Shown: positions 29,569 to 64,000, numbered from the stretch's first letter. The stretch: DNA of 64,000 nucleotides from Eledone cirrhosa (GCA_964016885.1 OZ024740.1:41602001-41666000); one strand, 5' to 3'. Numbers and translations are program-made. Notes: generated from the letters alone by a model not told the origin.

Positions 29569-32081
29569 TGACAAGTGAAAAACAAAAACAATAACAAAGA
29601 GTGCAGTTACGAACAGAGTTGGTATTAGGTTCACGCTTGAGAGTGTTGGGTGGGGGACGACGTTTCGGGCATAAGCCCTTCACCAGGAGACAGATGGGAA
29701 GGAAGAGTTCCGAGAGGGTGTGAGGGAGGAGTGGTGGAAAAACATTAAAATAAAGGGAAACAAATTAAAATGAAGGAAAAAGAATTAAAATGAAAACAAG
29801 TGGGGGAAGGGTGTGAGGCGTGTAGAGGTCGTGGTGGGTGGATGGAGGGTGAGGGAGAGGGGAGAAGGAAATTGGGGGTCCAAGCGGGGAGGGAAGAAGG
29901 TGATGTGTGCGAATGTGTGTAGGTGTACGTGTGTGTATGCGTGAATGTGTGTGTGAGAGTTTGGGGGAGAACGGGGTTCCATGCTCGTGTATTAGGAAAA
30001 CCAGTGTGTACATGGGGTGGGGTGTAAGTCTGTGTGTGTGTGCGTGTGGATGGAGAGGGGTTGGAAGAGGTGGGGGAGAGGGAGCGTGCGGAGTCCGGAG
30101 GCAAAGTAGGTGTATCTGAGGGTACGCACGTGTGTGGGTGTGTGTGTTCCTGAATGTTTTTCCGGTGAGTGTGCGGACAGATGGTGAACAATTCGGGTAT
30201 TAAATGGGGGATGTCCAGAGCGTAGAATTGGTGAGGAGGAAAGAGAAAGTTGTGGGGCGCGCGCAACAGGAAGTGGTCTAGAGGGTCAAGAAAGGGGGTG
30301 TAGAAGGCATGTGTGAAGGATGGGAGAGAGAGAGGAGATATCAGTCAAGAGAGCAAGGAACATTCAGGCAGTGGTAGTTGGCAGGTGTGGCCTGTATGTG
30401 TGTGTACAATGTGTGTGTCTGTGTGTGTGTGTGCGGAGGTGCGGTGGACAGAAGTGGAGGTGGTCAGTGTGAAAAGTTGAGGGAGAGGGTGATGGTGTGT
30501 GTAGGGTGTGTGTGTATATTAGTGGAAGTGTTAGTAGGATGTGTGTGTATGGGGGGGTGTTGGAAGTACGGGGGGAAGAGAGGTACTGGGTACTGTATGA
30601 TGAGTGTAATATAGTGGTGTGGAGTTGGTTGTGTATCGGTGTGTATGTTGGTATGGGTGAGAGTATATATGCTGGTGTGTGTTCGTGTGTGCGTAGTGAG
30701 GGGGAAGGTGGGTTGGGGGTGGGGGTGGGGGTGTTTAGTATTATTTGTGGTGGGGTGGTCGAATGTGGATGTGTGGGTGGAGGTTAGTGGTGGTAGTAGG
30801 GTGTGTGAATAGTGTGAGTGAGTGTATATATATATACTAGTGTGTGTGCGTGTTGAGGGTGAGAGTGCGTGTGTGGTAGGGGAGGGGTGGGGGTTAGTAT
30901 TATTAGTGGTGGGATGAACCAAGGGTTTGGGGGTGGCTGGAAGTGGAGGGGACTGTGAATCTTGGGAGTGTTTTAGTGGTGTTAGTAGGTGTGTGTAGGG
31001 GAGGATGAGGGAACGGTCGAAGGCTAAAGGGGGAGAGTGTGGAGTTCAGGCCGTGTGTGTGTGTGGGGGTGGGGGGGGGGGGGGTCTGTAGGGTGAAGAT
31101 GGTGTATTGTTCGGCCCTAAGTCGGGTTTCGGGGGTCCCATGGCATTCAATCAGGCCGCAGACGGTGAAGTTGCTGGCGGAGTGTCCAGTGGATCCAAAG
31201 TAGCGGTCGATGAGGGAAATCCCGCCCGACACGAATGTTTCAGAGGTCCCGCGTGTACCGATCCGCCAGGCGACGTCCGGTCTGTCCGACATAGGTCGTA
31301 CTGCACTCCGTGCAGCGAAGTCCATAGACGAGGTTGGAGGAGGTGCAGCGGAAGGCATGACGGACAGAGAGAGAGAGAGTAGCCGTTGGGACCCTGGAAG
31401 GTGGTGGTGTTGGTAATGTGGGGGCAGGTGTGGCAGCGGCGTATGGAGCATGGAAGGGAACCGGGGGGGGGGGGGGGGGCTGCAGACGAGGTGGTTGCGG
31501 AATTTGCGCGCGCGTTTGAAGGATGGGAGGGGTGGGGATGGGAAGATGGGGGAGGTGGAGGGGTCGGACTGGAGGCGTCGAAAGAGGCGGAGGATGGTGT
31601 GGTGGAAGGGTGGTAGGCGAAGGGGAAGGGGAGACGGTAGGTGGGGGCGCGGGGACGTGGGGTGAGGGCGGTGGAGCGGCGGACTGCGCGGGTGTGAGTG
31701 AGGGAGGCGTGGACGAGGGAGGGGGAGGCGTGGACGAGTGAAATGGCTGACCACAGACAGGATCGGGGTCTCGAAGCAGCATCTCGGTTGCAGAGGCGGT
31801 GGATCTGGAGGAGTTGGACTTAAGGAATGGAGTGTTTGATGTATGTGGGGTGGGAGGAGGTGAAGTCGAGGTAGGAGTGGGAGTCGGTGGGTTTGAAGAA
31901 GGCGGAGGTGACGAGGGAGTGGTGGGAGGGGTCGATGGCGACGGAGATGTCTAAGAAGTGGATGTGGGTGGTGGAGATAGAGGTGGGGAAGTGGAGGGAG
32001 GGGTGGAAAGAGCAGAAGAAGGAGAGAAAGGAGTTGAGCTGTTCTCGGCTGAGGGTCGTGGCGCCGATGCAGTCGTCAATG

Positions 32082-39325: not shown

Positions 39326-40037
39326 CACATATACATGAATACACATACATTTAATTATAAACATCAAATATATATATATATATATATACACTCACTCACT
39401 TATTTACTTATTTATATACATTTTCACCTATATACATACATATGGTCGCTTTTAGACACATTCATTGTAGCATATTCGCACCTATTCTCACCAGCATATT
39501 TATCCATTATTAGTGTGATAATTTAAGGTTATTAATAGTACATATATATGTTGAGAAGTGATTGTTTTTATATTTTTCTAACTAGATTGAGGATTTGTAT
39601 AGTTGGGAGGATGTCCCTTGTTTATGTAATATTCAGCTTGTAGTGGGAAAAAAGGGTTTTAGTTCGGTGGCGGCAGAATAATGTTCGTTCGATTCTGTTA
39701 TTAAGCAGTTTCTTCTTGTGTGTGATTATGTAATAAATCTCAAGATTACATAATTTGCAGACATTTTGGCTCCTGGAAAAGCTTTGGGTTTTAGCTAATT
39801 TCTCCCATTTTAGGGTAAACTTTTGATCGCCAACAACAAACTGCAGAAAGATATTAAAAAACTACGGGACGACCTTAAAAACACCAAAGGAATTGTAGTA
39901 AAAGCGGACAAAACATCTAACCTGTATACTATGGACTGCACTACATATAACAACTTCATTCGAAAAGAACTACATAAAAATATAGAAAAACGAGTGAAGT
40001 AACCCTTGAGCACATCAATGATGAGGCATGCAAAATA

Positions 40038-41213
40038 GTGAAAAATCTCGGAATCGAAGATAGGACAGGACCACTCTTACCGGCGGTACCCACCTTCAAT
40101 CTTAAGGACCATAAGGTAAACTTTGATAATGACCCTAAAATTAGACTAATCTGCCCCTCTAAATCAGATATAGGTAAAATAAGCAAATATATCTTAGATA
40201 GAATCATCCCCCAAATTAAGGCTAAGGTTAACATTAAACTCTGGGGGAAGACCCAAGAAGCAATTAGATGGTTTAATAGCATTAGCAATAAGAATAAATC
40301 TAAGTTTATCCAGTTTGATATCGATGAATATTACTCATCGATATCACCTGAAACTCTAAATAGAGCCATTGAGTTTGCTAAGGATAACTCTGACCTTACA
40401 AACGAAGAAATTAAGATTATATTAGAAGCTAGGAAAACTATAGTCAAATTTGAGAACAGTTATTGGGTTCGTAAAGATAGACCCTCCAACTTTGACATAA
40501 CAATGGGCTCTAACGATTCGGCGGAAATAACTGATATTGTGGGGTTATTTATCGCCTTTAAACTCCAGGAAAAATTCAGTAATCTCCACGGTGGAATATA
40601 CCGCGACGATGTTCTCCTCCTAGTTAAAAACCTAAATAACCAAAAACTAGAAGAACTACGCAAAGATATAAGAAAACTACTACTCGAAATAGGACTAACT
40701 ATAACATATGAACACAACCTTAAAGTAGTTAACTTCCTGGATGTCACACTCAATTTAAACTCTGGTCTGATTAAACCGTTTCATAAATTGAATGAAAATC
40801 TCAAGTACGTAAATGTTGGGTCTAACCACCCCATCTCTATAATTAAATCTATCCCTAAAAATATTTCCCTTAGAATCTCGGGTCTATCGTCTAACATACA
40901 AGTATTTAAGGAACACTCCGAGTACTACGATAACGCCCTTAATAAAGCAGGCTACCTCAATAAAATAGAGTACATAGATGAAAACAATCAAAACACCCAA
41001 AATAAATCTCACATAGGTCGAAATAATAACACAACACCAAACCATACTTACTACCATAGTGTACACACCAGTAAACCAACAAACAAAACTAATAGAAAGC
41101 GATGCAAAGAGTACTTATGGTATAACTCTGAATACAATAGTTCCATTAGTACAAATTTACCAGTACTCTTCTTTAAAATAGTTAGGAAACATTTTCCTAC
41201 AGCACACAAATAG
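40038..41213 (+). pseudogene. PLE reverse transcriptase (disrupted upstream by a frameshift, downstream by TAG)
   Basis: Motifs LKDHK..RLI, FDIDEYYSSI, ITMGS, IYRDD, VNFLDVTL, YVNVGSNHP. Confidence 0.92.
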
Positions 41214-41440
41214 CACAAAATCCTAAACCCTACCACTATAAGACTGTCATACTCTACAGCGTTAAACCTTGAACAACACATAAAAAAGATCAATACTAGA
41301 AGGTTAAACGAAAACACTAAAAACTTAAGTACAAAGAGCACAAAAAAACAGTAGACAATACACTACAGAACATAAATAAACCACACCTAAGTTCGTCCGC
41401 AATACTACTCCAGAGTAAACCTAACTACAAAACCAACGTA

Positions 41441-41878
41441 CACAACTGTAACTGCACCTATCCTGACAATTGCCCCCTCGGCAATAACTGCCTGGAAAAT
41501 AATATCACCTATAAGTGTACCATTGAATCCGGAGGTAACGAGTGGTATTACGTGGGTTCAACGGCAACATCGTTTAAATCTCGATTATATAGGCATTCTT
41601 ACTCAATAAAACACCAGAGCCAAAGAAATATAACAACTTTAGCAGAAAAAGCTTGGACACTCAGGGATAGCGATCAAAAGTTTACCCTAAAATGGGAAAA
41701 ATTAGCTAAAACCCAAAGCTTTTCCAGGAGCCAAAATTTCTGCAAATTATGTAATCTTGAGATTTATTACATAATCACACACAAGAAGAAACTGCTTAAT
41801 AACAGAATCGAACGAACATTATTCTGCCGCCACCGAACTAAAACCCTTTTTTCCCACTACAAGCTGAATATTACATAA
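41441..41878 (+). pseudogene. PLE GIY-YIG endonuclease with Cys linker
   Basis: In frame with ORF 41552: HNCNCTYPDNCPLGNNCLENNITYKC...YYVGSTATSFKSRLYRH...FCKLCNLE...LLN...CRH. Confidence 0.88.
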
Positions 41879-47570: not shown

Positions 47571-47990
47571 TGCCTGGATTTGCGACCGGTAGATAGTATT
47601 AGCAATTGGAAAGACCAATGGAAACATTGTTTTCTCGGTCCGATTTGACGAGCTCCATTCCACTCGTTAAGCGAATGAGGTCTGGGATCTTGACGATCGG
47701 CTGTTCCTTATAATAATAATAATAATGATTTCATTTATTGGCCACAAGAGCCGACATATAAGGGACAATACAAAAGACTGGGACAGTGGCGTTTTACAGA
47801 AAAAAACGAGTAAACAATATGAATAACAATAACAAAGTAACAATAAAGTAACAAGAAAATTACAAGAAAAAATTCCCCAATAGGGGGGATGACCACCTAG
47901 GGTTCGCTCAGGTACCCCACCAGTCCTGAATGACCCGACGCTTCGAGAGCACCCTGGAAGGGCACCCCTCTCCTTTTCAAATTTACCTAC

Positions 47991-50900
47991 CTACAGCCGC
48001 ATGACCAGAGTAGGCCCACTCACACGGGCCATTCTCGCCACATTCACCCACCTTTCAGCAAATGTACTGGGGGGAAGCACATCTCTCTCCACCCTCACCT
48101 TCCTTTCCAAGTGAAACTTGAAAAAGTTGATGAGGGATTGGCCGAAGAGAAAAGTGTCTGTCTTCAGTCCTTTCAACCTCGTCCACTATACAACCTCTTT
48201 CGCTACTGCCACCAGACAGAGGAAAATTGCCTGCCCTTCCTGGCCAAAAGAAGGCGGCGGGTCGATCTTCACTATGGACTCGGCCGATAGCCGGATCCGT
48301 TCTACACGCGACAACAGCTGTTCAACATAACTCCACAAGTCAGTAATGCACGGACACTGGACGAGTGCGTGCAGAACGGTTTCGTCGCTCTGCGCACATC
48401 TCAGGCAGGTCCATCTGACAGCACTTCAGTGCCTGTAGAGTTTATCTCGAACCGGCAGTGCCCCCCGGTAGCACTGCCAAGCGAGGGATCTTTGGAAATT
48501 ATCTATCGTCCCCGGCTCGAAAGTCCTCCGGTACAGACTGGTTAGTTCGACTTTGTTGACTCCCAGATCCTCTCCGAGTTCGTCGTCGCACTTGCCCACC
48601 ACTAATCCTCTATAGAACTCGAGAGGGAAGTTCCACTGACCGCATTGCCCGCCTGGTAGAGGGCTGTGAGTGGCTGGCAACATTCCAGATGCCAGTCACC
48701 CAGTTTCGGTCTCTTCTTGACCCAGGACTGCAACTCAGTCAAAGAAACGAGCTGCGGAAAGGCCCGTCTGACAAACAGCGACCAAACCTGTTCACCGTTT
48801 AGGCAGAATATCTGGAGATGCCGCAGCCTCAGCGCGTTCCTGCGCATCATTAGCCACGGCATGCCCAGCCCTCCACGTAGAGGGTGCTGGCAGCAGATGG
48901 ACCGCCTCACCAGCGGAACCTGACCCCTCCACAAGAATTTGAAGAGCAGCCGCTCCAAGATGGCGAGGCGCGAACGGGGCCAAGGGACGACAGTCAGACG
49001 GTAGTAGATGACGGACGCGATGTACGCGTTCGGCACCTCCGCCCGACCTTTCAGTGATAGCTTCATCCCAGCCCATTTCTGAGTGAGACTGACTACCCTG
49101 CCCGTCACCTCGTCCCAATTCTTATCCACCTGGAGGTCTGGCCCGAACCAAACCCCTAGCAACTTTACCGGTCCGTCCGTCCAGCGCCTAACGACGCTGT
49201 GGACGGCATGGACTTGCCTCTCCAGGTGCCGAGTTGCAAGCCCACTGACTTTTCCGGGTTAAGTTTTGCTCCCGTCAACCTTTCATATTCCTCCAATAAT
49301 TTGCCGACCACCTCGATTTCTGAGGTGTCCGACACCATCACGGTGATGTCGTCCGCATAAGCCGACACAGCCTTTCCGCGTCCCGGTTCGAGCGGGATGC
49401 CCTGCAACAGCTCCAGCTTCCGCAGTAAAGGCTCGAGAGTCAATACGTACAGAAGGGAGGAGAGAGGGCACCCTTGAAGGACCGATCGGGAGACCTGAAA
49501 CGGTTCCGAGAGGTGGCCATTAATTTTGACCATCGAGCAGGTGCCGCTGTGCATTGCAGCGATCCAGCTTCTGAAGACGGGGCCGAAGCCAGCCGCCTTG
49601 AGGACAGCCTCCAGGTACCGATGGTCGACCCTATCGAATGCTTTCGATTGATCTAAATTGATCAGAGCCCCACCGAAGCCAGGTTTACACCCTACCCCCT
49701 TTATGATGTATCGCATTAGGTGGAGGTTGTCGTGTATGGACCTGGTTGGGATTGCGCAAGTTTACGCCTCCCCAACCAAATCCCCGACGACAAGCGCCAA
49801 CCTCTTCGCTAACATCCTGGCCAAAATCTTAAACTCTGTGTTGAGCAGAGTTATGGGCCTGAAATTGTCTAATGTATCCCTCCTGTTCTCGTCTTTCCTT
49901 ATCAGCGTCACTACGCCCCGGCTCACAGAACTGGGAATACTCCCGTTTTGCTGCCAGTTGCTGTACAGGGCTTCGAGGAGATTGGAGAACAAGTCTGGCA
50001 TATTTACGTAAAGCTCGTAGGGCAGACCATCCAAACCGGGTGACTTGCGCCTCATGCAGCCGACAAGGGCATCCTGAATCTCGGCTGGAGTAATTGGCCT
50101 TTCGCAGCGCCCAGCGTCAGCCGTCGAGAGTTGCGGCAAGCCATCGAGGTAGGGACTGAAGTCCGCCACCATCTCTGACCCGCCACTTTCCCCGAACAAC
50201 CGAGAAAAATGTTGGCGAAAGACCTCACACATCCTCTTGAAATCGCTCAGCTCGTGCCCGTCTCGGTCCGTGAAAGACCGAATCGTGGTTTTATTACCAC
50301 GATGCGCCTCTGCCACGCGGGCCCATCGAACAGCTTTGGTTCCCTCGTTTCTCAGAGCACGCGCCTTAGCTCTGACAATGCAACCTTCGTGTTTCGCATT
50401 GAAGAAATGGTCTAATGCCATTCTCGCCACTAGCACATCAGTTGCAATGCCACTACCAATAGCCTCGTCTAACTTATCTACCAACTCCCCCTCCTTTCTA
50501 TTTTTCTCTAACGCTACTTCTTTGCTAAACTCTATCGACATTACTCTAATCTCTCTTTTGAGAGCCCCCCACCATCTGTTGTTGACGATTCCCCCTGTCA
50601 ACTTTTTCTTAACTAAATTGTTGACCTGGTCCCTGTAAGCCTTACGTGCCGGAAATGACATGTTTAGCTTCCAGTAACCAGGTCCTAACCTACGCGTTTC
50701 TAGGTCGACCATACAGATCACAAAGTTGTGATCTGAATAGGCGACCGTTTCAAAACGTGAACAGCTTACACTATTTCTGTCTATTTTCCTAATGAATATC
50801 CTGTCTATATACGATCTCGATAACCCTATGCGGTTAGCCCAGGTCCACACTGGCGCATTAGGGAAATCTAGTCGGTACCTGTAAGACAGTTGGAACTGGC

Positions 50901-51411
50901 TGATCAAGTTCTTGAGGCTTTTGCACACCCCGCTCCTATCGGATACTCCTCCCACACAGTCCCAGCGTGCGTCTAAGATGCCGTTCCAGTCCCCCGCTAA
51001 CAGTAAAGGGCGAGACGTGCCCAGAAAGGCTTCCAGGCGTCTAAAGAAGTCCGGCCGTCCTGCCCCAGTAGGAGCATAGACGGCCACCAGTCTAAAGGCA
51101 CCACCATCATTATTGTTCACGTCCAGGACCACCAACTTCCCGTTCGGGTCCCGGAAGATCGACCTTACCTCGAGATCCAGGCCTTTCCTAAACAGCACTG
51201 CCACACCGCCTCCCATTCCCGGCCGGCTAACATATGCAAAGATCTGATAGTCGTCGAAAATGGGGGCTAGTACGCGCGTGTCGGAAATCCTGGTCTCGCT
51301 AACTGCAATTACATCCATTTCTATAGACCTGAGGTCGTTGAGCAGGTGACCCTGCTTCCAGGACGATCCCAGGCCTCGAACATTTAAACATTCTACTCTT
51401 AATACGGTCAT
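47991..51411 (-). pseudogene. E1 ORF2: AP endonuclease, reverse transcriptase, C-terminal Cys motif; broken by stops/frameshifts
   Basis: LNVRGL, SET, YAP, GDWN, SYIDRIF, SDH; KSPGLDG, FRPITLLN, DQSKAFDRV, QGCPLS, YADD; CLRCAQSDETVLHALVQC. Confidence 0.93.
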
Positions 51412-51442
51412 GTTGGCAAGTTAAACAGAGAGAGAGGAAGGT

Positions 51443-53179
51443 TTACTTACCTTCCGGGCTCTTGTGAAGGTCGGGTTGTTCGACCTCCATAGTTAGTGGG
51501 ATTTCTTTTGGGAACCCCTTTAAAAGTCTTGAAGTGGGTTTTACGTTCGGGGTTCCCACGTCCCGAGGAAAGCTGTCTCGTATTTCTTTGAATATGTCGA
51601 GCGACATTCGCACCAGAACCAAATCTTCCGGCACGGGAAATGTGCTCGATTAAAAAATTTCTCCCTCATTTTGTATATTTTCACTTCGTGCTACGAGGGC
51701 CATCAGTTCCTTGTTGGCCCTCCTGACGAGCACGAAGTTTTGTATGTTTTATGGGTGTGATTTTAATGTTTGCGTGGCTGTGGTGGTGGTGGTTTTGGTG
51801 GTGTTGTTTTGGTTGTATCTATGTTTGTCGTGAGTGCGGTGTCTGTGGTTTCAGATGTTTGTGTGTATATTTGTTCTAGCGTCTGTTTCGGTTGTTTGCG
51901 CCTGGGGGATTCTGGTGATGGTGATGGTGATGGTGGTGTTGATGTTGGTGTTATTGGAGAGATGTTTGCGTGGGTGCTGTCTGCGTTTTTTATTGTGGGT
52001 GCTTTTGTGCTTTGTTGTGTTTTTTTTTCCTTTTTGTGTTTCCCTTTTTTGTATTTTGGAGGATTTTGGATTTCCCTCATTTTCACTACTGGTAGATGAG
52101 GGGTCTGTGTCTGTAAGTGTGTCTGTATGTATGTTTATGGTTTTATTGGTGTGTGTATTTTTGGGGGGAGGGGGAATTTGACAGCTTTCCTCGTTTCTCC
52201 CCTGGGTGGTCAATGTTGGTGGTGGTCTTTCTATTGGTGTTGTTGTTGGTGGTTTTGCCGGTGCTGGTGTTAGTTGTGGTCCTCGCCCCGGCGTCGGCAG
52301 CAGTGGAGCCTTTCGACCCCTTGCCTCTTTCAGCAGTTGAGGGCAGAAGGGTCGCAAATGGGTTTTTTCCCCACAAACAAAACACTGCGGCCTTTTGCCT
52401 TCGGTCATAATGTGAATGACCGTCCCATTCTGAAGGCGGATGTAGTCTGGGATTGTCTTCACATTCTCGAGCCTGATCTGGAGAAGGATCTCCAGGTCAA
52501 CTCCGGACCAGTCCTCTCTGGCCGTTCTGGTTACTTCTATAGGGACTGTATCAGTCCCTTCCACAATCACACATCCCAGAAGCCACCACATGTCAAGTCC
52601 TGGTGGGATTCTGGGAATGCGGAGACGGGCCGTTCTTTTTCCCATGTGGGAGGGGTACATTATGACCTTGCTGGTTTTGCAAGGAGTCATAGCGTGTTTC
52701 ATAGCGAGGGCTTCTGACTTGAACAACACCGAAATGGTGCCGTACTGTCTGCCCCTCTCTATGTACTGGGTGTCTTCTCTGATGCACCTCAGCGCGACTT
52801 CGACATCTTCTTGTTGGATTAAAGCTGCCCTTTTGGTTTGTGCTGAGATGCATCTATAATGCACCGTTCTGCCCTCCACAGCCTCAATAGCTTCTACCGG
52901 GACAGTTAAGTTGGCCCAGGTTTGCTCTTGCTTGATGAGCTTCCATGCCTGGGCCAACTTTTCATCTTTGTTTGAGAGGTCCATGTTGAAGCATGGCCTC
53001 TTTTTTGTTGCTGCCGCAGCGAAAGTGTTCTTCTTGTTTTCGTTGGGGGTTTTGTTGTCGTTGTTCTTGTTGGTGTTGTTGTTAGCACTGTCGCTGTTAT
53101 CATTGTTGTCTTTGTTGCCACCGTTGTTCTCGGTGCAGTTGGTATTGTTGCTGTTGGTGTTGTCGCTATTTGTTTTCAT
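51443..53179 (-). pseudogene. E1 ORF1 (gag-like nucleic-acid-binding protein), frameshifted
   Basis: CFVCGEKTHLRPFC (CX2CX4HX4C) with Asn/Thr/Pro-rich low-complexity flanks; continues in ORF pieces 51763-52086 and 51443-51634. Confidence 0.85.
51445..51453 (-). promoter_or_regulatory. Consensus 5' splice site AAG|GTAAGT at the E1 ORF1 stop
   Basis: Minus strand CCGGAAG|GTAAGTAAAC; first intron base 51450, 39 nt before the ORF2 ATG. Use is not demonstrated. Confidence 0.55.
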
Positions 53180-53659
53180 GTTAGTGGTGTTGATATTGTT
53201 GTTGTATTTGTTATTTTTTTTTTGTTATCTGTATTTTCGTTGTTGCTGTTACTGTCATTTTTTTCAAAATTAGTGTTCTTATTGGTATCATTGGTGTCTT
53301 TGTTTACCTTGTTTGTGGTGGTGTTTGTGTTATCAATGTGTGTTAATTTCGCTGTAGCGCTCCTCTCAACTTCTACGTCGTTGTCGCACGACAGCCGACA
53401 TATCGCTGGGGGCGTGGCTCAGCCATGTTTTTTTTTCTTCGTAAATCTTTTAACATGTAAAAAAAAATTTCAAATATTTGGGCCAAAAGGCCCAAATATG
53501 ATACTTTCCCCTTCACGGGGCAAAGTCTAAGGGCTTATATCCCTTACACAACAAGAAATATTTCACATCAAATAATTTTAATAGGCAAATAAAGCGACTT
53601 ACTGTGAGCGAGCAAAATACGTCCGCTTAGACCAATAATAATAATAATAATAATAATAA

Positions 53660-54534
53660 ATGGAAAATGCCCAGAAAGAGCTAACAATCCTGATGTTGAC
53701 AAAACTTTAACCCATCAGTGGTTGGCATCCTCTGGACTGAAATCGGAGACTGAAGGACTGATTATATCGGCACAAGATCAGTGTCTGCCAACAAAATATT
53801 ACCAAGCCAACATAATAAACAATGGCGGCAACCCATTATGCCGTATGTAAAAAACAACCAGAGACCATTGATCATATAATTTCATTGTGCAGTCCTATAG
53901 GTCCAACCGAATACCTAAACAGGTACCACAGAGTTTCACATTACATACATTGGATAATGTGTAAGCATTTTGACCTGCCCCATCAAAAGAATTGGTGGGA
54001 GCATCAACCACCTCCCATACTTGAAAAAGATCGCATCTCAATCTTGTGGAACTTTAGCATCCAAACAGACCGAAAAATAGATGCAAATAGACCTGATATA
54101 CTGAAAGACTTTAAAAAGAGGGTATGCCTGCTAATTGATATGTCCGTTCCAATAGACAAGAATGTATCTATAAAAACATTTGAAAAATTGAGCAAGTATA
54201 AGGACCTGGAGATAGAAATTAGAAAAATGTGGAAAGTGAGAACTAAAACAATACCAGTGGTTGTAGGCGCTCTAGGAATGATACCTAAGGGGTCTAATGA
54301 TTACTTATCGCAAATCCCAGGAAACCCCCGTATAGGAGAAATACAAAAGATAGTACTAATGGGAACTACCCATATACTAATGAAGATTCTGTCAATAAAA
54401 GTACATCACAAGTCTAAACACCTAAAGATGCATGAGTGTGTATGTATCTTCTTTCTTGAACATGTTGTCTCTTGAGGTCAGTGGTTGTGACTTGGTGATA
54501 ACTCGTATGAACATAAAGCAAGATAAATGCAACT

Positions 54535-54535: not shown

Positions 54536-54570
<35 letters not shown>

Positions 54571-54809
54571 CTTTCTTTATTAACCACAAGGGTTTACATA
54601 AAGTAGACATTAAGGACAGTACAGGACAATACATGACGGTACAAATGGGCATTTCTGCGTGTAAAAACAAAAAACAGAGGATGTAACAAAAAAATAACAA
54701 TGAAAAATTCCCCAATGGGGGGGGGGGGGAGAGACTTCCGAGGGAGATTTGTGGAGAAAGCCCATTAAAAGGCCACAGTGACCCTGACCACCAGGGCAAG
54801 TGCCGTGTC

Positions 54810-57800
54810 CTAGTTTTCCACCTTTAATTTACTGACACATACTCGGGCCATACTTGTTTCTCTCGACCATCTTTCAACAAAATGCTGGGAAGAGAGCACT
54901 TCCCTCTCTACCCTGATTTTCCTTTTCAAATGAAATTTGAAAAAGTTAATCAGGGCATCACCGAAGAGATAAGTGCTCGTCTTCAGCCCTTTCAAACGTG
55001 TCCACCATACTATCTCTTTCGCCATGGCCACCAGACAGATAAAAACTGCCTGCCCTTCCCGGCTAAAGGAAGAGGGCAGGGAAATCCTCACGATGGACTC
55101 AGCTGATAACTGGATCCGTCCTACACGTGACAGCAGGTGTTAGACATAAACCCACAAGTCAGCAATGCTCGGACACTGGACGAGTGCGTGCAGGACGGTT
55201 TCGTCGCCCTGTGCGCATCTCGGACATGCCCGGCTGACGGCACCTCCATGCCTGTAGAGTTTATCCCTAACTGGAAAAGCTCCTCGGTAGCACTGCCAGG
55301 CCAGGGATTTCTGGAAGTTGTCCATAGGCCCCGGCTCGAAAGTTCTTTTGTAGAGATTGGCTAGTTGATTTTCGTCGACGTCTAGAGTTTCCCCAAGTAC
55401 GTCGTCGCTCTTCCCCTCCACTAATCCTCTATAGAACGCCAATGTGGAGTTTCCACCGATCACATTGCCCGATTGGTCGAGGGCTGTGAGCGCCTGAAGA
55501 CATTCCAGTCTCCAAGCGCTCCCTCTCGGTCTTCGCTTGACCCAGGACTGCAGCTCCGTCAAGGAGACGAGCTGGGGAAAAACGTGTCTTGCAAACGGCG
55601 ACCACACCTGATCACCGTCGAGGAAGAGGTGGAGATGTCGTAGCCTGAGCGCGTGTCTGCGCATCATCAGCCACGGCATGCCCAGCCCTCCACGTAGCGG
55701 GTGTTGACAGCAGATGGACCGCCTGACCATCGGAGCGCGTCCCTTCCACAAGAAGCGAAAGAGCAAACGCTCCCGCGCACTCAGGCGGGGCTTAGGACAA
55801 GGTACGACGGTCAGGCGGTAGTAGATGACGGATGCGATGTACGCATTCGCCACCTCCGCTCGACCTTTCAGGGATAGCTTCCTCTCGGCCCATTTCTGGG
55901 TGAGAGAAGCCACCCTGCTCGTCACCTCGTCCCAGTTTTTGTCCGTCTGGAGGTCTGGACCGAACCAGACCCCTAGCAATTTAACCGGTCCGTCCGTCCA
56001 GCGCCCGACGACGCTGTTGGACGGCATGGACCTGCCTCTCCAGGTGCCGAGCTGCAGGCCCACTGACTTTTCCTGGTTGATCATTGCTCCTGTCACCGCT
56101 TCGTATTCTTTTAGTGTAGTGCCGATCGCCTCGATGTGTTTGGCGTTCGACACCACTACGGTGACATCGTCGGCATATGCTGACACGGATCTTCCGCATC
56201 CTAGTTCGCGCGGGACCCCCCTCAACGTCTCCAGTTTGTGCAGTAATGGGTCGAGAGTCAATACGTAGAAGAGGGACGAGAGGGGACATCCTTGGCGGAC
56301 CAAGCGCATGATGTAGAACGGTTCCGAAAGGTGACCTTTCACTCTCACCACAGAGCAGATGTCGCTGTGCATGGCAGCGATCCAGCCTCTGAAGACAGGC
56401 CCAAAGCCAGCCGCCCTCAGGACTGCTGCTAGGTAACGATGGTCGACCCTATCGAAAGCTTTCGACTGATCTAAATTGATCAAGGATCCACCCGTGCCAG
56501 GTTCCCTAGCTACCCTCTCTACGATGTATCGCATGGGTTGGAGGTTGTCGTGGATGGATCTGTCGGGAATGGCGCATGTCTGCGCCTCTCTCATCAGACC
56601 ACCAACGACAAGCGCCAACCTCTTTGCTAGCACCTTGGCCAAAATCTTGAACTCTGCGTTTAGCAGAGTTATGGGCCTGAAATTATCTATGTTATCCCCC
56701 TTGTTCGGATCCTTTCTCAGCAGCGCCACAGCTTCTCGGCTCACAGAGTTGGGAATTCTCCCGTTCTGTTGCCAGTTGCAGTAGACGTCCGCCAAGAGGC
56801 CTCCGAACAAGTCTGGCATCTGTACATAAAGTTCATAGGGCAGACCATCCAAACCAGGCGATTTACCCCTTGTGCAGCCAGCCACTGCCTCCGGTACTTC
56901 AGCGGCTGTTATCGGCTTTTCGCAACACTCCGCCTCAGTAACCGAGAGCCGCGGCAGTCCGTCGAGGTAGACACTAAAGTCCATCCCTCGATCCGGCCCG
57001 CCACTGCCCCCGAATAGCTGGGCGAAGTGTCGCTGGAAAGCTTCACACATTTGCCCGGGATCGAGTAGCATATGCCCGTTGTGGTCCACCAAAGACCGGA
57101 TCGTGGCTTTGTTGCCACTCGGGCCCATTGAACGGCTTTCTTCCCCTCGTGTCTGAGAGCACGCACCCTAGCTCTGACAACGCAGCTTTTGTGCTTTGCA
57201 TTGAAGAATTGGTTAAGGGCCAATTTCGCCGCAAGTACGTCGGTCGCGATGCCTTTGCTAAGCGCCTCGTCTAATTTTCTAACTAGTTCTCCCTCCGCTC
57301 TATTTTTCTCTATTGCTAAAGTCTTACTAAGCCTAATGGACTCTATTCTAATCGCTCTTTTCAGAGCAAACCACCACTTGTTGTTGTCGATGGCCCCCGT
57401 CAACGCCCGCTTAACTAGTTCGCTAATCCGGTCTCTGTAGGCCTTGCGCACTGGTAAGGACGCGTTTAGCTGCCAGTAGCCGGGTCCTCGTCTATGAAGT
57501 CTATCTAAGTCAAGCACACAGATCACGAATTTGTGGTCCGTGTAGCTGATTATCTTGAATTGTGGACAGCCTATGCTAGACCTATCTATTTCCCTACAAA
57601 ATACTCTATCTAGATATGATCTGGATGACCCTATGCGATTTGTCCAAGTCCACATTGGCACATTCGGGAAATACAATCGGTACCTGTCGGACAGTTCAAA
57701 CGCCTGAGCAGGTTGGTGAGGCTCTTGCACCCTCCTCCCCTATCCGCTAATCCCACACAGTCCCAGCGTGCATCTAAGATCCCGTTCCAGTCGCCCACTA

Positions 57801-58197
57801 ACACTAAAGAGCGGGACGTTCCAAGAAAGGTCTCCAGACGCCAGAAGAAATCAGGCCGCCCTGCTCCTGTCGGGGCACCGACGGCCACTAGCCTGAAAGC
57901 TTGCCCGTCTCCGCTGGTCACGTCCAGCACCACCAACTTACCTTCTGGGTCCAGGAAGATGGCCCGTATGGCAAGATTCAAACCTCTCCGAAAAAGCACA
58001 GCAACTCTACCCCCCGATTCAGGACGGCTGGGAGATGCGTACACATCGTAGCCGTCGACGATCGGTGTGAAGGCCTGTGCTTCGCTGATGGCCACTACAT
58101 CTATGTTTAGTGACCTGAGGTCGTTGAGCAGGTGGCGCTGCTTCCATGACGACCCCAAGCCACGCGCATTTATGCTGCCTATTCTGAGTGAGGTCAT
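54810..58197 (-). pseudogene. E2 ORF2: APE, RT and CCHC, frameshifted
   Basis: INARGL, GDWN, SYLDRVF, TDH, KSPGLDG, DQSKAFDRV, RQGCPLS, YADD, CPRCAQGDETVLHALVQC across ORFs 57631-58197, 56909-57730, 55140-57128 and 54810-55091. Confidence 0.93.
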
Positions 58198-58229
58198 GTT
58201 GAAATGGAGTGGAAAAGATGGGAAAGACC

Positions 58230-58238
58230 ACTTACCTT
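58230..58238 (-). promoter_or_regulatory. Consensus 5' splice site AAG|GTAAGT at the E2 ORF1 stop
   Basis: Minus strand GAAGTAAG|GTAAGTGG; first intron base 58235, 38 nt before the ORF2 ATG. Use is not demonstrated. Confidence 0.55.
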
Positions 58239-60162
58239 ACTTCTCGTAGATGAAGGATGGTTTCTCCATCCTTTTCACCGCTTGTGGCCTCCTCCGGAAG
58301 GATGTCCTTATAAATCCTCCTGGAGAGTGCTTGTCGGAAGTCTCCGATGTCTTTGGGGAATTTTTGTTTTAGTGTCGTGTACGTTTTCTGTGTGATGCGA
58401 GTGATTTGTATGTGTGCAGGTGGTGTGAACTTTTGGGTTGTTGTGTAGTCTTTTTCTGTGATGCTGGTGTTGTGTTGGATGTAGAGTAATAATTGCTTGT
58501 TGTTCAAATTTAATGCTGCGTAGTGTGTATCGTTTTGGTTGTTTTGTTTCGTTTGCGTTTGTTGTGGGTTTGTTTTTGTTTCGCTTTCTGGTGACTTTTG
58601 TGGTGTTGGTAATGGTGGTGTTGGGGTTAACGATGGTGATGGTGTTGGTGTTTGTGGTGATGGGGTTGGTGATGCTGGTGTGGATGGTGGCATATCTGTC
58701 CTAACTTTTTTGTTTGATAGTTTATTTGTTTCCCTCTGTATTTTGTTTTTGGAGTGGGAAGGAAGAGGATTTTTTATTTTTTGGTTTCTTTTTGTTTTTT
58801 TCTTTTTTCCTGATACCGTTTCCCCACTCCTTGTCGTCACAATCTGTCTCCAGTTGCGATATGTCGGGGACTGAAAAATCCTCCACAGGCGTTGATTTTG
58901 GTTGTGGCGTAGTGGATAGTGTAGGCGCTGGTGCTAGTTCTGGCGCGTTGGGTGGTGGTGGTGTTGGTTTTGCTACTGTTGCTGGGGTTGTTGCTGTTAC
59001 AGTTGCTTCTGTTGTTGCTGCTACAGTTGTTGCTGCTATTTCTGCTGCTGGTGGTGTTGATGGTTGAGTCACTGGAGTGGGTAAGAGAGGTGGCCTCAAC
59101 CTTTTAGCCTGAGGGCAGAAAGCCCTAAGGTGGGTTCCTTCACCACAAACGACACACCTAGGCCTTCTGCCCACGACGATTACTGTGAGGTGGCTGCCGT
59201 CAGTGAGGTCTATTACCTCTGGGATTTCCTCAATGCTTTTTTGGTCCGCTTGGTTCAGGAGCTCCATCCCAGATCCGGACCAGTTCTTCTGCTTTTCTTT
59301 CGCTATTTCGATTATCTTGGTGTTGGCCTCGATGCCGGCGAGGACGGCAGCCATTAGCCAGGGAATTTCGATGGCCGGTAGAAAGTGGGTCACTCTGATC
59401 TTCACGAGTCTCTGGCCACAATAGCTTGGGACGAGTGTGAAGTGGTCACTTCTTAATGGGGCCATGGAGTGTTCTCTGGCCTCCTGTGGTGTTTCAAAGA
59501 ACACGTCCACGGTTCCATATTTCTGCCCACGTCTGATGTGGGTTTTTTTTGCCCACACATGTCCCAAAGCTTTTTGGATTTGGGACTCGGATGCCCGTTC
59601 CACTCGGCGCAATTTTATGTTAATCGTCCGATAAGACACGGTGCATAGGCGCCGATGGTCCATTTTATTAGGGGGGGGGGCTGACCCTGTACCCATCTTT
59701 CTTTACCATTCTCTTAGCTTCATCTAATTCCTCCTGAGTTACCTGGATTGCTTCGCACTTTTTTGCTACTCTGGCAAAAGACAGGGTGGTTTTCTTATTC
59801 TCATTATTGTTGCTGTTGTTGTTATCGTTATTTTCAGTTATTGTTATTTGAAGTTTCAGTTGTAGTGGTGGTGGCGTCAGTGGTGTTCGGTGTGGAAGAT
59901 TCCATTCTGGGTGAAACCATTTCGATGTCATGAGATAATTTATTTTTTTCTTTTGTTTCTGTTGTCGCTGTTGTGGTGGTGGGGTGGCGGCTTCAACACC
60001 TGCAGTCATTGGTAATGGCGGGAAATGAATGTCTGCATGATACAAATTTAAATTATTGCTACTGCTTATATTTTTAGTGTTGGCAAACGTAGTCATATTT
60101 ACAATGGTGGTGTCGGTGTGAGGTGTTAGTTTGTGAGGAAGGTGTGACTGTGAGTCGTCCAT
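58232..60162 (-). pseudogene. E2 ORF1, frameshifted
   Basis: CVVCGEGTHLRAFC knuckle; RGQKYGTV aligns with E1 RGRQYGTI; FPKDIG aligns with E1 FPRDVG. Confidence 0.85.
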
Positions 60163-60375
60163 GATTTTTTCAAAGAAAATTTTCTTTGATAATTATAAAA
60201 ATTTAAATTTTGGGCTCAAGGCCCCAAACTCTTTGAGTTTCCTTTTCAGAAAACAATGTATGTGCACTTATATACAGTTAACAATAAACATTTTCCATAA
60301 ATGGCAATTTTAAACAACTGAAAACAACAAACATTTGCGGAGCTCACGATAATACGATTTTCTACGTAGGTCGCC

Positions 60376-61774: not shown

Positions 61775-64000
61775 CGTCTACAGCGTGATAATACCACACA
61801 AAAATCACCGGGAGTGACGAAATCACCGGTGGTTATGTAACCATACATTCGCCAATCCTCGATAAGAGTGTTTAAATGTCGAACCTAGACAGTTCGAATA
61901 ACGGTGAAATGGAGACTAGAATGTCATGTAACAGACTCTCACCCAACAGGTGCTCCATGGCTCAGCAGCAGGGACCTGGCTGTCAACCAAATACTGCTGG
62001 TGTCGGAGGAAGAAGAAGAAGGAAAGGGACCAGAACCAACTGGACGAAAGAATTGAATAGAACTGTTATGCAATGTTACCTGAACAGTAACCCCAAGGAG
62101 AAAGGCTATAGGAAAAAGGATGCATAACATCTGGAACGAGATTGGTTTATTTAAATTAGATGAACAAAAATTGGCCGGGCAGGCTCGGGTAATAAGAACT
62201 AATGGGTGGATAAGCGAGCTGGAACTGGAGGAACTGAGCAGAGAGATTAGGTTGGAAATGGAGAGTGGAGTATGCCAGGCAAACGAGCCAGTGGGAAATG
62301 AAGGTGAAGAGGTCGAGAGAACGGAGGAACCACCCGAAGCAGACAATGATCTGAATGCTGAAATAAATAATACCTGGAACAGAGATACGGCCACTGATGA
62401 GATGAATGCTGACGGGCTAGGACAGATTTAGTTGATATCCTAAACTTAGTGGTAGATGAATTGAACAATGATAGTGGGAAACCTATGAACCTAAGATTTG
62501 TAGACAGGAAAAAGTTAAAAGAAACAACAGTTAAGGTAAACAAAGTCATCCCATACCTTGAGGCGAGGAGCCTTCACCAGTGCAACAATATCCTCAAAGC
62601 AACAGCAAATACGGCGAGGAAACTACTTGGTATAAAAGCGAGAGGAAACAACAAACAAGAAAGATCAGAGCCTTGGTGGAAGAAACGACTGAGTGGTCAA
62701 ATCAGGGAAATGAGAAATGACATTGGAAAGCTTGAGTCCCTACTGAATGGGACACTAAAAATCATAGACACTAAAAATAGACTGGAAATAAAGTACAAAA
62801 CTAGGAGGAAAAAGCTAAATATTATCATAAAGGAACTGAAGCAACGCATTGTAGCAAAGAGTGCAAAAATCAGGCGATACGAGAAGAGAGTCAGTCAGTA
62901 TAGACAGAACCGCATGTTCGACAACAACCAGAAGATGCTGTTTGGACAGCTTGAAGGAAAAGAAAGAGGCGGAACAAACTAAAACATTCTGGAGAGGAAT
63001 ATGGGAGCAGGATGTTAAACATAATGACCAGGCAGTGTGGATTGAGACAGTACAGAAGGAGATTAGTGAACAGGCACACCAAAAAAACTGATTTAAGTAT
63101 CGCAGTTGAAACTCTTAAGGGGCAGGCCAAAAACTAACCAACTGGAAATCACCAGGCCCAGATGGTGTGCAGGGGTATTGGATTAAAAATATAACATCCC
63201 TCCACCCGAAACTGACAACCATGTTCAATGACTGCTTGATGTCAGGTGAGGTACCAGAGTGGTACCACAGTTCTGATAATGAAAGACCGAATCAAGGGTA
63301 ATGATGTTACCAACTATAGACCTATCACATGTCTGTCCGTAATGTGGAAACTGTTGACAAGCATTATGTCTGAGGAAATCTACCATCACCTCCACACAAA
63401 CAACTTGTTACCGGACGAACAGAAAGAATGCCGAAAGAAGTCACGTGGTACAAAGGACCAGTTACTTATTGATAAGATGGTAATGAGGAATTGCAAGAGG
63501 AGACACACTGGTCTTGCCATGGGATGGATAGACTACAAAAAGGCATTTTACATGGTGCCTCATTCTTGGATCACCAAAAGCCTGGAGATCTTCAAGGTGG
63601 CAGATAACATCAGACAGTTGTTGGGCAAAAGTATGAAGTCCTGGGAAACAGAGTTAACATCAACTGGAGAATCCTTGGGAAGCGTGAAGATCAAGAGAGG
63701 TATCTTCCAGGGAGATAGTCTGTCCCCTCTGTTGTTTGTCCTTGCCCTGATGCTCCTGACCAGTGTACTGCGAAAAGTGAGAGCAGGATACAGGTTGGGA
63801 AAGGGAAGGCTTACCATCAATTACCTCCTCTTCATGGACGATCTTAAGCTCTTCGGGAAGAGTGAGAGGAGTTGGATGTGCTTGTTGACACTGTCCGTAT
63901 TTTCAGCAATGATATATGTATGCAATTTGGTATTAGTAAGTGTGGAGTCCTTGTGATGAAGAGGGGTAAATTGAGCAGAAACAACGGAATCCAGGTACCA
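61775..64000 (+). mobile_element. R4/Dong-like non-LTR retrotransposon, 5' part, frameshifted, continuing off the window
   Basis: N-terminal NWTKELNRTVMQCY..S.P..GYRK..W.EIG.F...[66 protein letters not shown]. Confidence 0.9.

Follow-up and report, generated by a model that had tools for sequence, protein, structure and literature searches.

A perfect 5' splice-site motif lies at the end of the first open reading frame (ORF1) of two long interspersed nuclear elements (LINEs), E1 and E2, which are arranged in tandem on the minus strand of a 64,000-nucleotide stretch of the Eledone cirrhosa genome (GCA_964016885.1 OZ024740.1:41602001-41666000; hereafter the window). We found a motif of this type in all ten of the related families that we compared in this genome. 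LINEs are held to avoid splice signals, since their RNA must be unspliced to serve as a template. We propose that the motif is a selected site for U1 small nuclear ribonucleoprotein (snRNP) on the full-length RNA, and that it would act mainly without splicing, by protecting the transcript. Given the comparisons of sequence described below, we put the probability of this proposal at about 45%. The persistence of a strong donor despite changes of frame and of stop codon, exchange of ORF1, and about 60% divergence in ORF2 suggests that elements without long terminal repeats (LTRs) use U1 snRNP in a way that has not been reported.

The donor at the end of ORF1

In E2, the motif AAG/GTAAGT occupies positions 58230-58238 (GT at 58235), 38 nt before the ATG of ORF2. 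In E1, it occupies 51445-51453 (GT at 51450), 39 nt before the ATG. An earlier reading of the window, made from the sequence alone (the sequence-only reading), had placed perfect donors at these positions and a pyrimidine-rich spacer after each, and we verified both features in both elements. (The spacer of E2, at 58198-58229 on the minus strand, has no AG before the ATG.) The donor was also said to overlap the ORF1 stop codon. It does so in both elements, but not in the same manner: the lengths of the open frames in genomic copies put the motif in phase 2 in E2, where ORF1 ends with arginine and the stop, and in phase 1 in E1, where ORF1 ends with glycine, lysine, and the stop. As the phase differs between E1 and E2, the motif is not one conserved codon pair.

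Both families are large (a first look for the junction gave 2,177 candidates for E2 and 2,786 for E1). The donor was intact in 30/30 of the best junction matches for E2 and in 28/30 for E1, although these were picked for likeness across the site. When the query was blind to the sequence after ORF1, 26 of 30 E2 copies had GTAAGT and all 30 continued into the spacer. As a negative control, we used a second perfect donor-like 9-mer, which lies within ORF2 of E2 (57936-57944, minus strand; GT at 57941). Its existence means that a single perfect match proves nothing by itself. Apart from E2, only F4 and one of the two F7 copies have this internal 9-mer in perfect form.

Eight further families (E3 and F4-F10) were located by means of a related protein, flank 3' end fragments, and patterns for the start of ORF2, none of which contains the donor. 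We clustered 284 junction windows (the loci overlap, and some copies are counted twice). Nine singleton windows, mostly from old or truncated copies and some with a degraded motif, are outside the family count. A donor-type 9-mer was present 28-54 nt before the ORF2 start in 10/10 families, so the conservation that the sequence-only reading had named as a check extends well beyond the two elements in which the donor was noticed.

GTAAGT, GTAGGT, and GTGAGT are all usual forms of a donor. The first is found in E1, E2, E3, F4, F5, F8, and F9; the second in F6 (31/31) and in a few F8 copies; and the third in F10 (2/2). F7 has GTAATT following CAG (4/5). The three usual forms correspond to the stop codon within the motif, which is TAA, TAG (F6), or TGA (F10). 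The ORF1 phase of the motif is 2 in E2, E3, F5, and F6 and also, by translation, in F9 and F10; it is 1 in E1 and F4; and it is 0 in F8, where ORF1 extends 36 nt beyond the donor site.

Positions −1, +1, +2, and +6 of the motif are invariant in the ten families, and −1, +1, +2, +3, +5, and +6 are invariant in the seven deep lineages. None of the 41 flanking positions is. Among fourfold-degenerate sites in ORF2, 50/231 are invariant across the seven lineages, and E1 and E2 are identical at a fraction of 0.47 of such sites. Silent-site identity between deep lineages is 0.43-0.68 in most pairs and up to 0.77, which is near saturation. When the junctions were aligned without anchoring on the donor, the motif fell in one column in 9/10 families. 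By these comparisons, the donor exceeds chance, and they show a clade-wide 5' splice-site motif that appears to be selected at the nucleotide level.

An outgroup with the same arrangement

A scan of genome contigs found animal-type LINE arrays within a bacterial bin (G001; L502-L543, L551). Their ORF2 is 41% identical to that of the ten families, and they are sister to these families in a quick tree of the reverse transcriptase (RT), with support of 100 in the Shimodaira-Hasegawa-like approximate likelihood ratio test (SH-aLRT); E2, F9, and L443 were omitted from this tree as short segments. In 8/9 outgroup subfamilies, a perfect motif is outside any codon: it starts 1 nt past the ORF1 stop and is 13 nt away from the ATG that follows. 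A donor-type site is also present near the ORF2 stop in all nine subfamilies: 14 nt after it in six, across it in two, and 45 nt after it in L502.

In the outgroup 3' untranslated regions (UTRs), the donor just past the ORF2 stop and a U-rich acceptor-like site 150-250 nt downstream of it make up a complete intron-like unit (L505:7471-7740, L502:7462-7660), unspliced in every copy seen. G001 is a species-representative bacterial bin in which at least 16 contigs (L502-L543, L551, L560-L563) are tandem arrays of animal-type LINEs. These contigs are evidently host DNA that was assembled together with the bacterial sequence. Such LINEs occur in other bins as well (L544-L559), and the viral contigs that we searched yielded no relative.

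More distant relatives are 25-35% identical. Of 42 distinct junctions from 138 loci, four score at least 8/9 (two from the outgroup and two distant), as compared to 23/1,322 background windows. As distant relatives mostly have no ORF1-end site, the feature belongs to one clade and not to Tx1/L1 elements at large.

Candidate acceptors

The sequence-only reading paired the donor with a conserved acceptor in the 3' UTR. The acceptor of E2 is present, as a U tract with CAG (54655-54680, minus strand; CAG at 54657-54655) 74 nt before the terminal AATAAA (54576-54581, minus strand; hexamer at 54581), and so is the other CAG that was pointed out in E1 (47780-47778). The pairing does not hold across families. 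AG is present at the aligned site in 29/30 fetched copies of the E2 family; the fetched E1 copies have AA in 30/30 (47778-47798 on the minus strand spans this site, at 47798-47793, and the next CAG); F4 has AC; and F5, F6, F8, F9, and F10 have TGTAAA. The AA of E1 had been taken for a decayed AG, but since it is fixed in the family, there is no decay. The AG is thus confined to E2, E3, and F7, whose common ORF2/3' UTR is one of about eight 3' UTR lineages. On this distribution it is a derived variant; the U-rich tract upstream of it is present in every family. In F6, F8, F9, and F10, the interval from the 3' UTR hairpin to the poly(A) signal contains no AG. We found no acceptor common to all ten families. 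Because the 54655 acceptor is restricted to one lineage, a function common to all families cannot rest on it.

A better candidate for a shared acceptor may be the stop codon of ORF2. In 6/10 families, E1 included, ORF2 ends with TAG followed by GT and a purine-rich run. (ORF2 of E2, E3, and F7 ends with TAA, and the pyrimidine tract before this candidate is partly coding.) Seven YAG sites within ORF2 are shared, all with weak pyrimidine tracts and mostly forced by codons. We also considered two other signs of splicing and set them aside. A micro-intron within the spacer would need an AG before the ATG, which is present only in F7, F8, F10, and some E1 subfamilies. In some families, a splice to the ORF2 stop would soon be followed by an in-frame stop, but no more often, by a hand count, than a random phase would give.

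The 3' UTR hairpin has a C-run and a G-run (54710-54721 in E2, minus strand, inside the proposed intron; 47875-47886 in E1) and was identified by eye, without folding or counting. It is present in all families, its stems change on both sides between families, and it is a candidate for an element recognized by the RT. TGTA motifs and a conserved stretch lie upstream of AATAAA. In the RT region, nucleotides 1681-1749 of ORF2 (about 56450-56520 of the window, minus strand) have an excess of silent-site conservation and end near a shared TAG/AG; 9/12 codons do not vary among the seven lineages (P = 6e-4 uncorrected, marginal once corrected).

Spliced copies were not found

If ORF2 were removed by splicing, then copies that lack the sequence from donor to acceptor might be left in the genome. 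We searched for them with exact probes for named junctions and with partial generic probes, each of which spans roughly 1/3 to 1/2 of the possible exon starts; families F4, F6, F7, F9, and F10 are outside this search. The exact probes, which cover the retrocopies that the sequence-only reading had suggested looking for, found none. For E2, the junction from either of two adjacent donors to 54654 had no genomic match, as compared to 1,266 exact unspliced donors. The E3 probe had two matches, one that lacks a single nucleotide and one with a 435-nt deletion that has no AG, and the E1 junction to 47777 had four, all of them deletions of 1-5 nt, so neither gave a spliced copy. The F8 probe and the junctions to the ORF2 stop (E1, F5/F8, and E2/E3) had no matches. 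The generic probe for E2/E3 had 15 matches, which are small deletions, substitutions, an inversion, a fragment, or chance, and none is spliced. In the outgroup there were 0 spliced and 73 unspliced matches (among overlapping loci). Four contig sets, none of them on record as RNA, were also compared to E2: none of the best 15 of 1,713 joints was at the donor, which is uninformative about splicing.

LINE proteins act preferentially on the RNA that encodes them. With a splice to 54654, the 3' UTR hairpin would be lost, so the spliced RNA could be unusable as a template and hence invisible in the genome. The absence of spliced copies weighs against an abundant spliced RNA that is competent as a template, and would weigh less against a sterile one. 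For comparison, spliced copies of human L1 are about 2% as numerous as full-length ones (PMC5860796; here and below, statements about cited papers refer to the parts of their text that were available).

A second donor-like motif lies near the cap. In E2, it is at 60342-60350 (minus strand; GT at 60347), or about +29, and is the same in 15/16 fetched leaders; in E1, it is at 53597-53605 (minus strand; GT at 53602), or about +32, with GTAAGT in 13/13. A 5' UTR motif of this type is near +30 in E1, E2, E3, F5, and F9, at +64 in F8, and at +85 in F6; the F4 5' UTR has none. Among the fetched loci, none has the +30 motif joined to a downstream site, but no genome-wide check was made.

How the donor might act

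If the motif at the end of ORF1 is a site for U1, then U1 snRNP would dock there on the full-length RNA. AATAAA or ATTAAA hexamers are present in ORF1, 190-700 nt upstream of the donor, in 8/10 families; they are rare in ORF2, and the intact ORF2 of E3 has no canonical hexamer. The hexamers in the A-rich ORF1 would be usable poly(A) sites, and docked U1 would suppress cleavage and polyadenylation at them, which is the effect of a downstream donor on retroviral 5' LTRs and in the plant element EVD (discussed below). Transcription would then reach ORF2 and the 3' end. No shared acceptor and no spliced copies are what we would expect if U1 binds without splicing. The sequence-only reading had raised this use of U1, against premature polyadenylation, as an alternative to its own proposal, and it appears to fit the shared anatomy better than does pairing with a 3' UTR acceptor.

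Several observations weigh against U1 docking without splicing. The count of invariant positions was anchored on the donor, and the families are related and recombine, so it does not yield a formal probability. The scanned F4 and F7 copies have no AATAAA or ATTAAA hexamer near the donor. By eye, the ORF1 hexamers have no downstream U- or GU-rich element, and they may reflect mere A-richness. The donor is predicted to be partly paired with the spacer in all families, in a varying register. In the outgroup, the ninth subfamily (L502, 48% identical to the others) has no ORF1-end donor, and its stop and start codons overlap. Also, the outgroup has a textbook U-rich TAG acceptor in the 3' UTR, about 245 nt beyond the second donor. 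This second donor and acceptor resemble real splicing, which protection from premature polyadenylation (telescripting) does not need.

We think it somewhat unlikely that the donor is instead spliced to an acceptor that differs by lineage (the CAG at 54655 in E2/E3/F7, the TAG/GT at the ORF2 stop in others, and the 3' UTR acceptor in the outgroup), which would give an ORF1-only mRNA and leave the unspliced RNA as the template. We have similar doubts about a more elaborate version, in which the clade would run separate RNA pools: donors at the ORF1 stop, and in the outgroup at the ORF2 stop too, would splice to a 3' acceptor to make messages for ORF1 only or for translation only. Having lost the 3' template signal, these would be sterile, and only the RNA that retains the intron would be copied. 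If this were true, it would be regulated splicing in the style of retroviruses, in a non-LTR element, and invisible in the genome. Splicing would make sense of the outgroup, with its first donor, second donor, and U-rich TAG acceptor, and of L502, which has the second donor and an acceptor of its own. The donors at the ends of ORF1 and ORF2 are all within about 45 nt of a stop codon, and an intron that close to the stop would escape nonsense-mediated decay. The TAG/GT with its purine-rich run in 6/10 families fits as well, and loss of the hairpin by the splice to 54654 could hide the spliced RNA from the genome. However, the AG at 54655 is not common to the families, four of them (F6, F8, F9, and F10) have no AG at all in the interval from the hairpin to the poly(A) signal, and the AGs shared in ORF2 all lack a strong pyrimidine tract. 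Furthermore, the 2% of spliced copies in human L1 compares to zero here, for E2, E3, E1, the ORF2-stop junctions, and the outgroup alike.

The excess of ORF1 protein (ORF1p) over ORF2 protein is mostly attributed to poor reinitiation at ORF2. The motif might not be read by U1 at all, but might be an RNA hairpin or protein-binding element that couples termination of ORF1 to initiation of ORF2, or that binds ORF1p. The distance to the ORF2 start is short and fixed (13-54 nt), a stem between motif and spacer is predicted in every family (z < −2.5 in E1, E3, F4, and F9), the motif-less L502 has overlapping stop and start codons instead, and ORF2 of F8 has no ATG. We still consider this unlikely: the register of pairing varies by family, the remaining 7/11 folds have z values that are weak or close to zero, and the conserved footprint and the tolerated variants fit the consensus of a donor. 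Also, neither of the other places in which the motif occurs, near +30 and downstream of the ORF2 stop, has anything to reinitiate. A search of Rfam gave no match at the gathering level. Least probable, in our view, is chance with common descent, in which a lysine- and arginine-rich end of ORF1 and a stop codon happen to spell a donor that related families inherited. ORF2 codons do yield a perfect 9-mer in E2 and F4, scores of at least 8/9 occur in 2/40 distant LINE junctions as well as in the background windows, and recombining families are not fully independent. Yet the motif has survived in each of three phases and with each of three stop codons, and in the outgroup it lies wholly after the stop. 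Silent sites are close to saturation, conservation does not extend to the flanks, and the match within ORF2 is not kept. Finally, we dropped the idea that a lone donor evades the human silencing hub (HUSH), as protection by introns does not need a 5' splice site (PMC8770142).

Comparison to known systems

The nearest known case is the plant Ty1/copia element EVD. In Arabidopsis, binding of U1 suppresses premature termination of the full-length EVD RNA, a mutant of the U1 site terminates early, and splicing yields a GAG-only mRNA (Oberlin et al., 2017, PMC5580714). EVD resembles the LINEs that we describe in that its structural gene ends with a conserved 5' splice site. It differs in being an LTR element with one ORF and a short intron with a defined acceptor, just after which is a poly(A) site (PMC5580714). 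In contrast, these LINEs have two ORFs, we found no shared nearby acceptor or poly(A) signal in ORF2, and a role of U1 in them is proposed from their DNA sequence.

In retroviruses, the poly(A) site that is suppressed is the LTR duplicate near the cap. The major splice donor suppresses this site of the 5' LTR in HIV-1 and foamy virus (PMC3694450). Both there and here, poly(A) signals have a donor nearby, and the RNA can be copied only if it stays full-length and unspliced, but the candidates in these LINEs are hexamers inside ORF1 and only putative poly(A) sites. Human L1, with its spliced integrated elements (SpIREs; Larson et al., 2018, PMC5860796), is another LINE that retains a splice donor in an RNA that must stay unspliced. 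That donor lies in the 5' UTR, an overlapping RUNX3 site accounts for it, and it has left spliced copies; the available part of the paper names no donor at the end of ORF1. Kibi and Koshi, which are Tx1-clade elements that target microsatellites (Kojima, 2015, PMC4494074), are likewise animal LINEs with an apurinic/apyrimidinic (AP) endonuclease that lie in simple repeats. Their target repeats are other than (TTA)n or (TCTA)n, and a splice signal is not mentioned in the part of the text that was available.

An article on octopus repeats lists L1-Tx1 families, and its available text contains no occurrence of "splic" (PMC13282606). More broadly, in literature that did not include subscription journals or Repbase reports, we found no LINE or Tx1 element described as having a conserved donor where ORF1 ends. 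The families E3, F6, and F8 are young and intact and have many near-identical copies, so the idea is directly testable there. Thousands of strong donors across the genome could also affect splicing of the host's genes.

Anatomy of the elements and their families

E2 (54570-60375) and E1 (47727-53633) are full-length but decayed LINEs of the L1/Tx1 type and represent sister families, with 75% DNA identity in ORF2. E2 is flanked by (TTA)n runs and E1 lies between such runs. Stops and frameshifts disrupt both copies. ORF1 is at 58232-60162 in E2 (stop at 58234-58232) and at 51443-53426 in E1 (stop at 51445-51443). ORF2 is at 54829-58197 in E2 (ATG at 58197), where it encodes AP endonuclease, RT, and zf-RVT domains, and at 47991-51411 in E1 (ATG at 51411; TAG stop). 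All are on the minus strand and broken in the window.

An intact sister of E2, E3 (copy L188), is a young family with copies that are about 99% alike, an ORF1 of 695 amino acids, and an ORF2 of 1,139. Its ORF2, like the ORF2 fragments in the window, matches the Pfam families PF03372, PF00078, and PF13966, and the best relatives of ORF2 in PDB are human L1 ORF2p. The E3 ORF1 has no Pfam family above the cut-off and an ORF1 homologue search gave no match, but a CCHC knuckle (C-x2-C-x4-H-x4-C) is visible in its translation. The ORF2 domains and the CCHC ORF1 identify these elements, by their encoded proteins, as non-LTR retrotransposons of the L1/Tx1 type. The label "Tx1-like" comes from the sequence-only reading and would agree with the anatomy; our RT tree contained no named Tx1 element.

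The copies terminate in, and are nested inside, (TTA)n or (TCTA)n, which suggests a preference for simple repeats as targets (judged by eye and uncounted). E1, E2, E3, F4, and F7 are associated with (TTA)n and F5, F6, F8, F9, and F10 with (TCTA)n. The families are also modular: one ORF2/3' UTR (E2, E3, and F7; 54570-58197 in the window, L188, L295) is joined to three different ORF1/5' UTR modules. As the ORF2s of these three families are alike at 0.95 while their ORF1s differ, the families recombine. One E1 copy (L403) bears a different 3' UTR.

Some E3 copies (L181-L185, L187; G000:C28:122866000-122895999 and others) are arrayed head to tail and repeat about every 6,050 bp. In F8 (L285, with ORF2 starting at about 2988 on the plus strand; L260, L286-L294, L300-L301), which is young and has an intact ORF2, the start position is ATA in 13/13 distinct windows, and the ORF2 start overlaps the ORF1 stop in the −1 frame. 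The ATA is a candidate for a natural non-AUG start or, alternatively, for a −1 frameshift at the lysine codon before the stop. The E2 copy in the window has a 19-nt deletion at the end of ORF2 (54850-54856), which is also present in 10/29 other fetched 3' ends of the E2 type; such copies are an amplified defective subfamily.

Elsewhere in the window, at 39978-41878 (plus strand) and 31240-31950 (minus strand), are ORFs that by eye resemble an RT followed by a GIY-YIG endonuclease, which we take to be of the Penelope type. The one of these ORFs that was scanned, at 39978-41210, had no Pfam match. Fragments of another LINE type, presumably RTE-like, are at 53819-54475, between E1 and E2, and at 62413-63956 (both on the plus strand), and PF00078 (RT) matches at 63240-63953.

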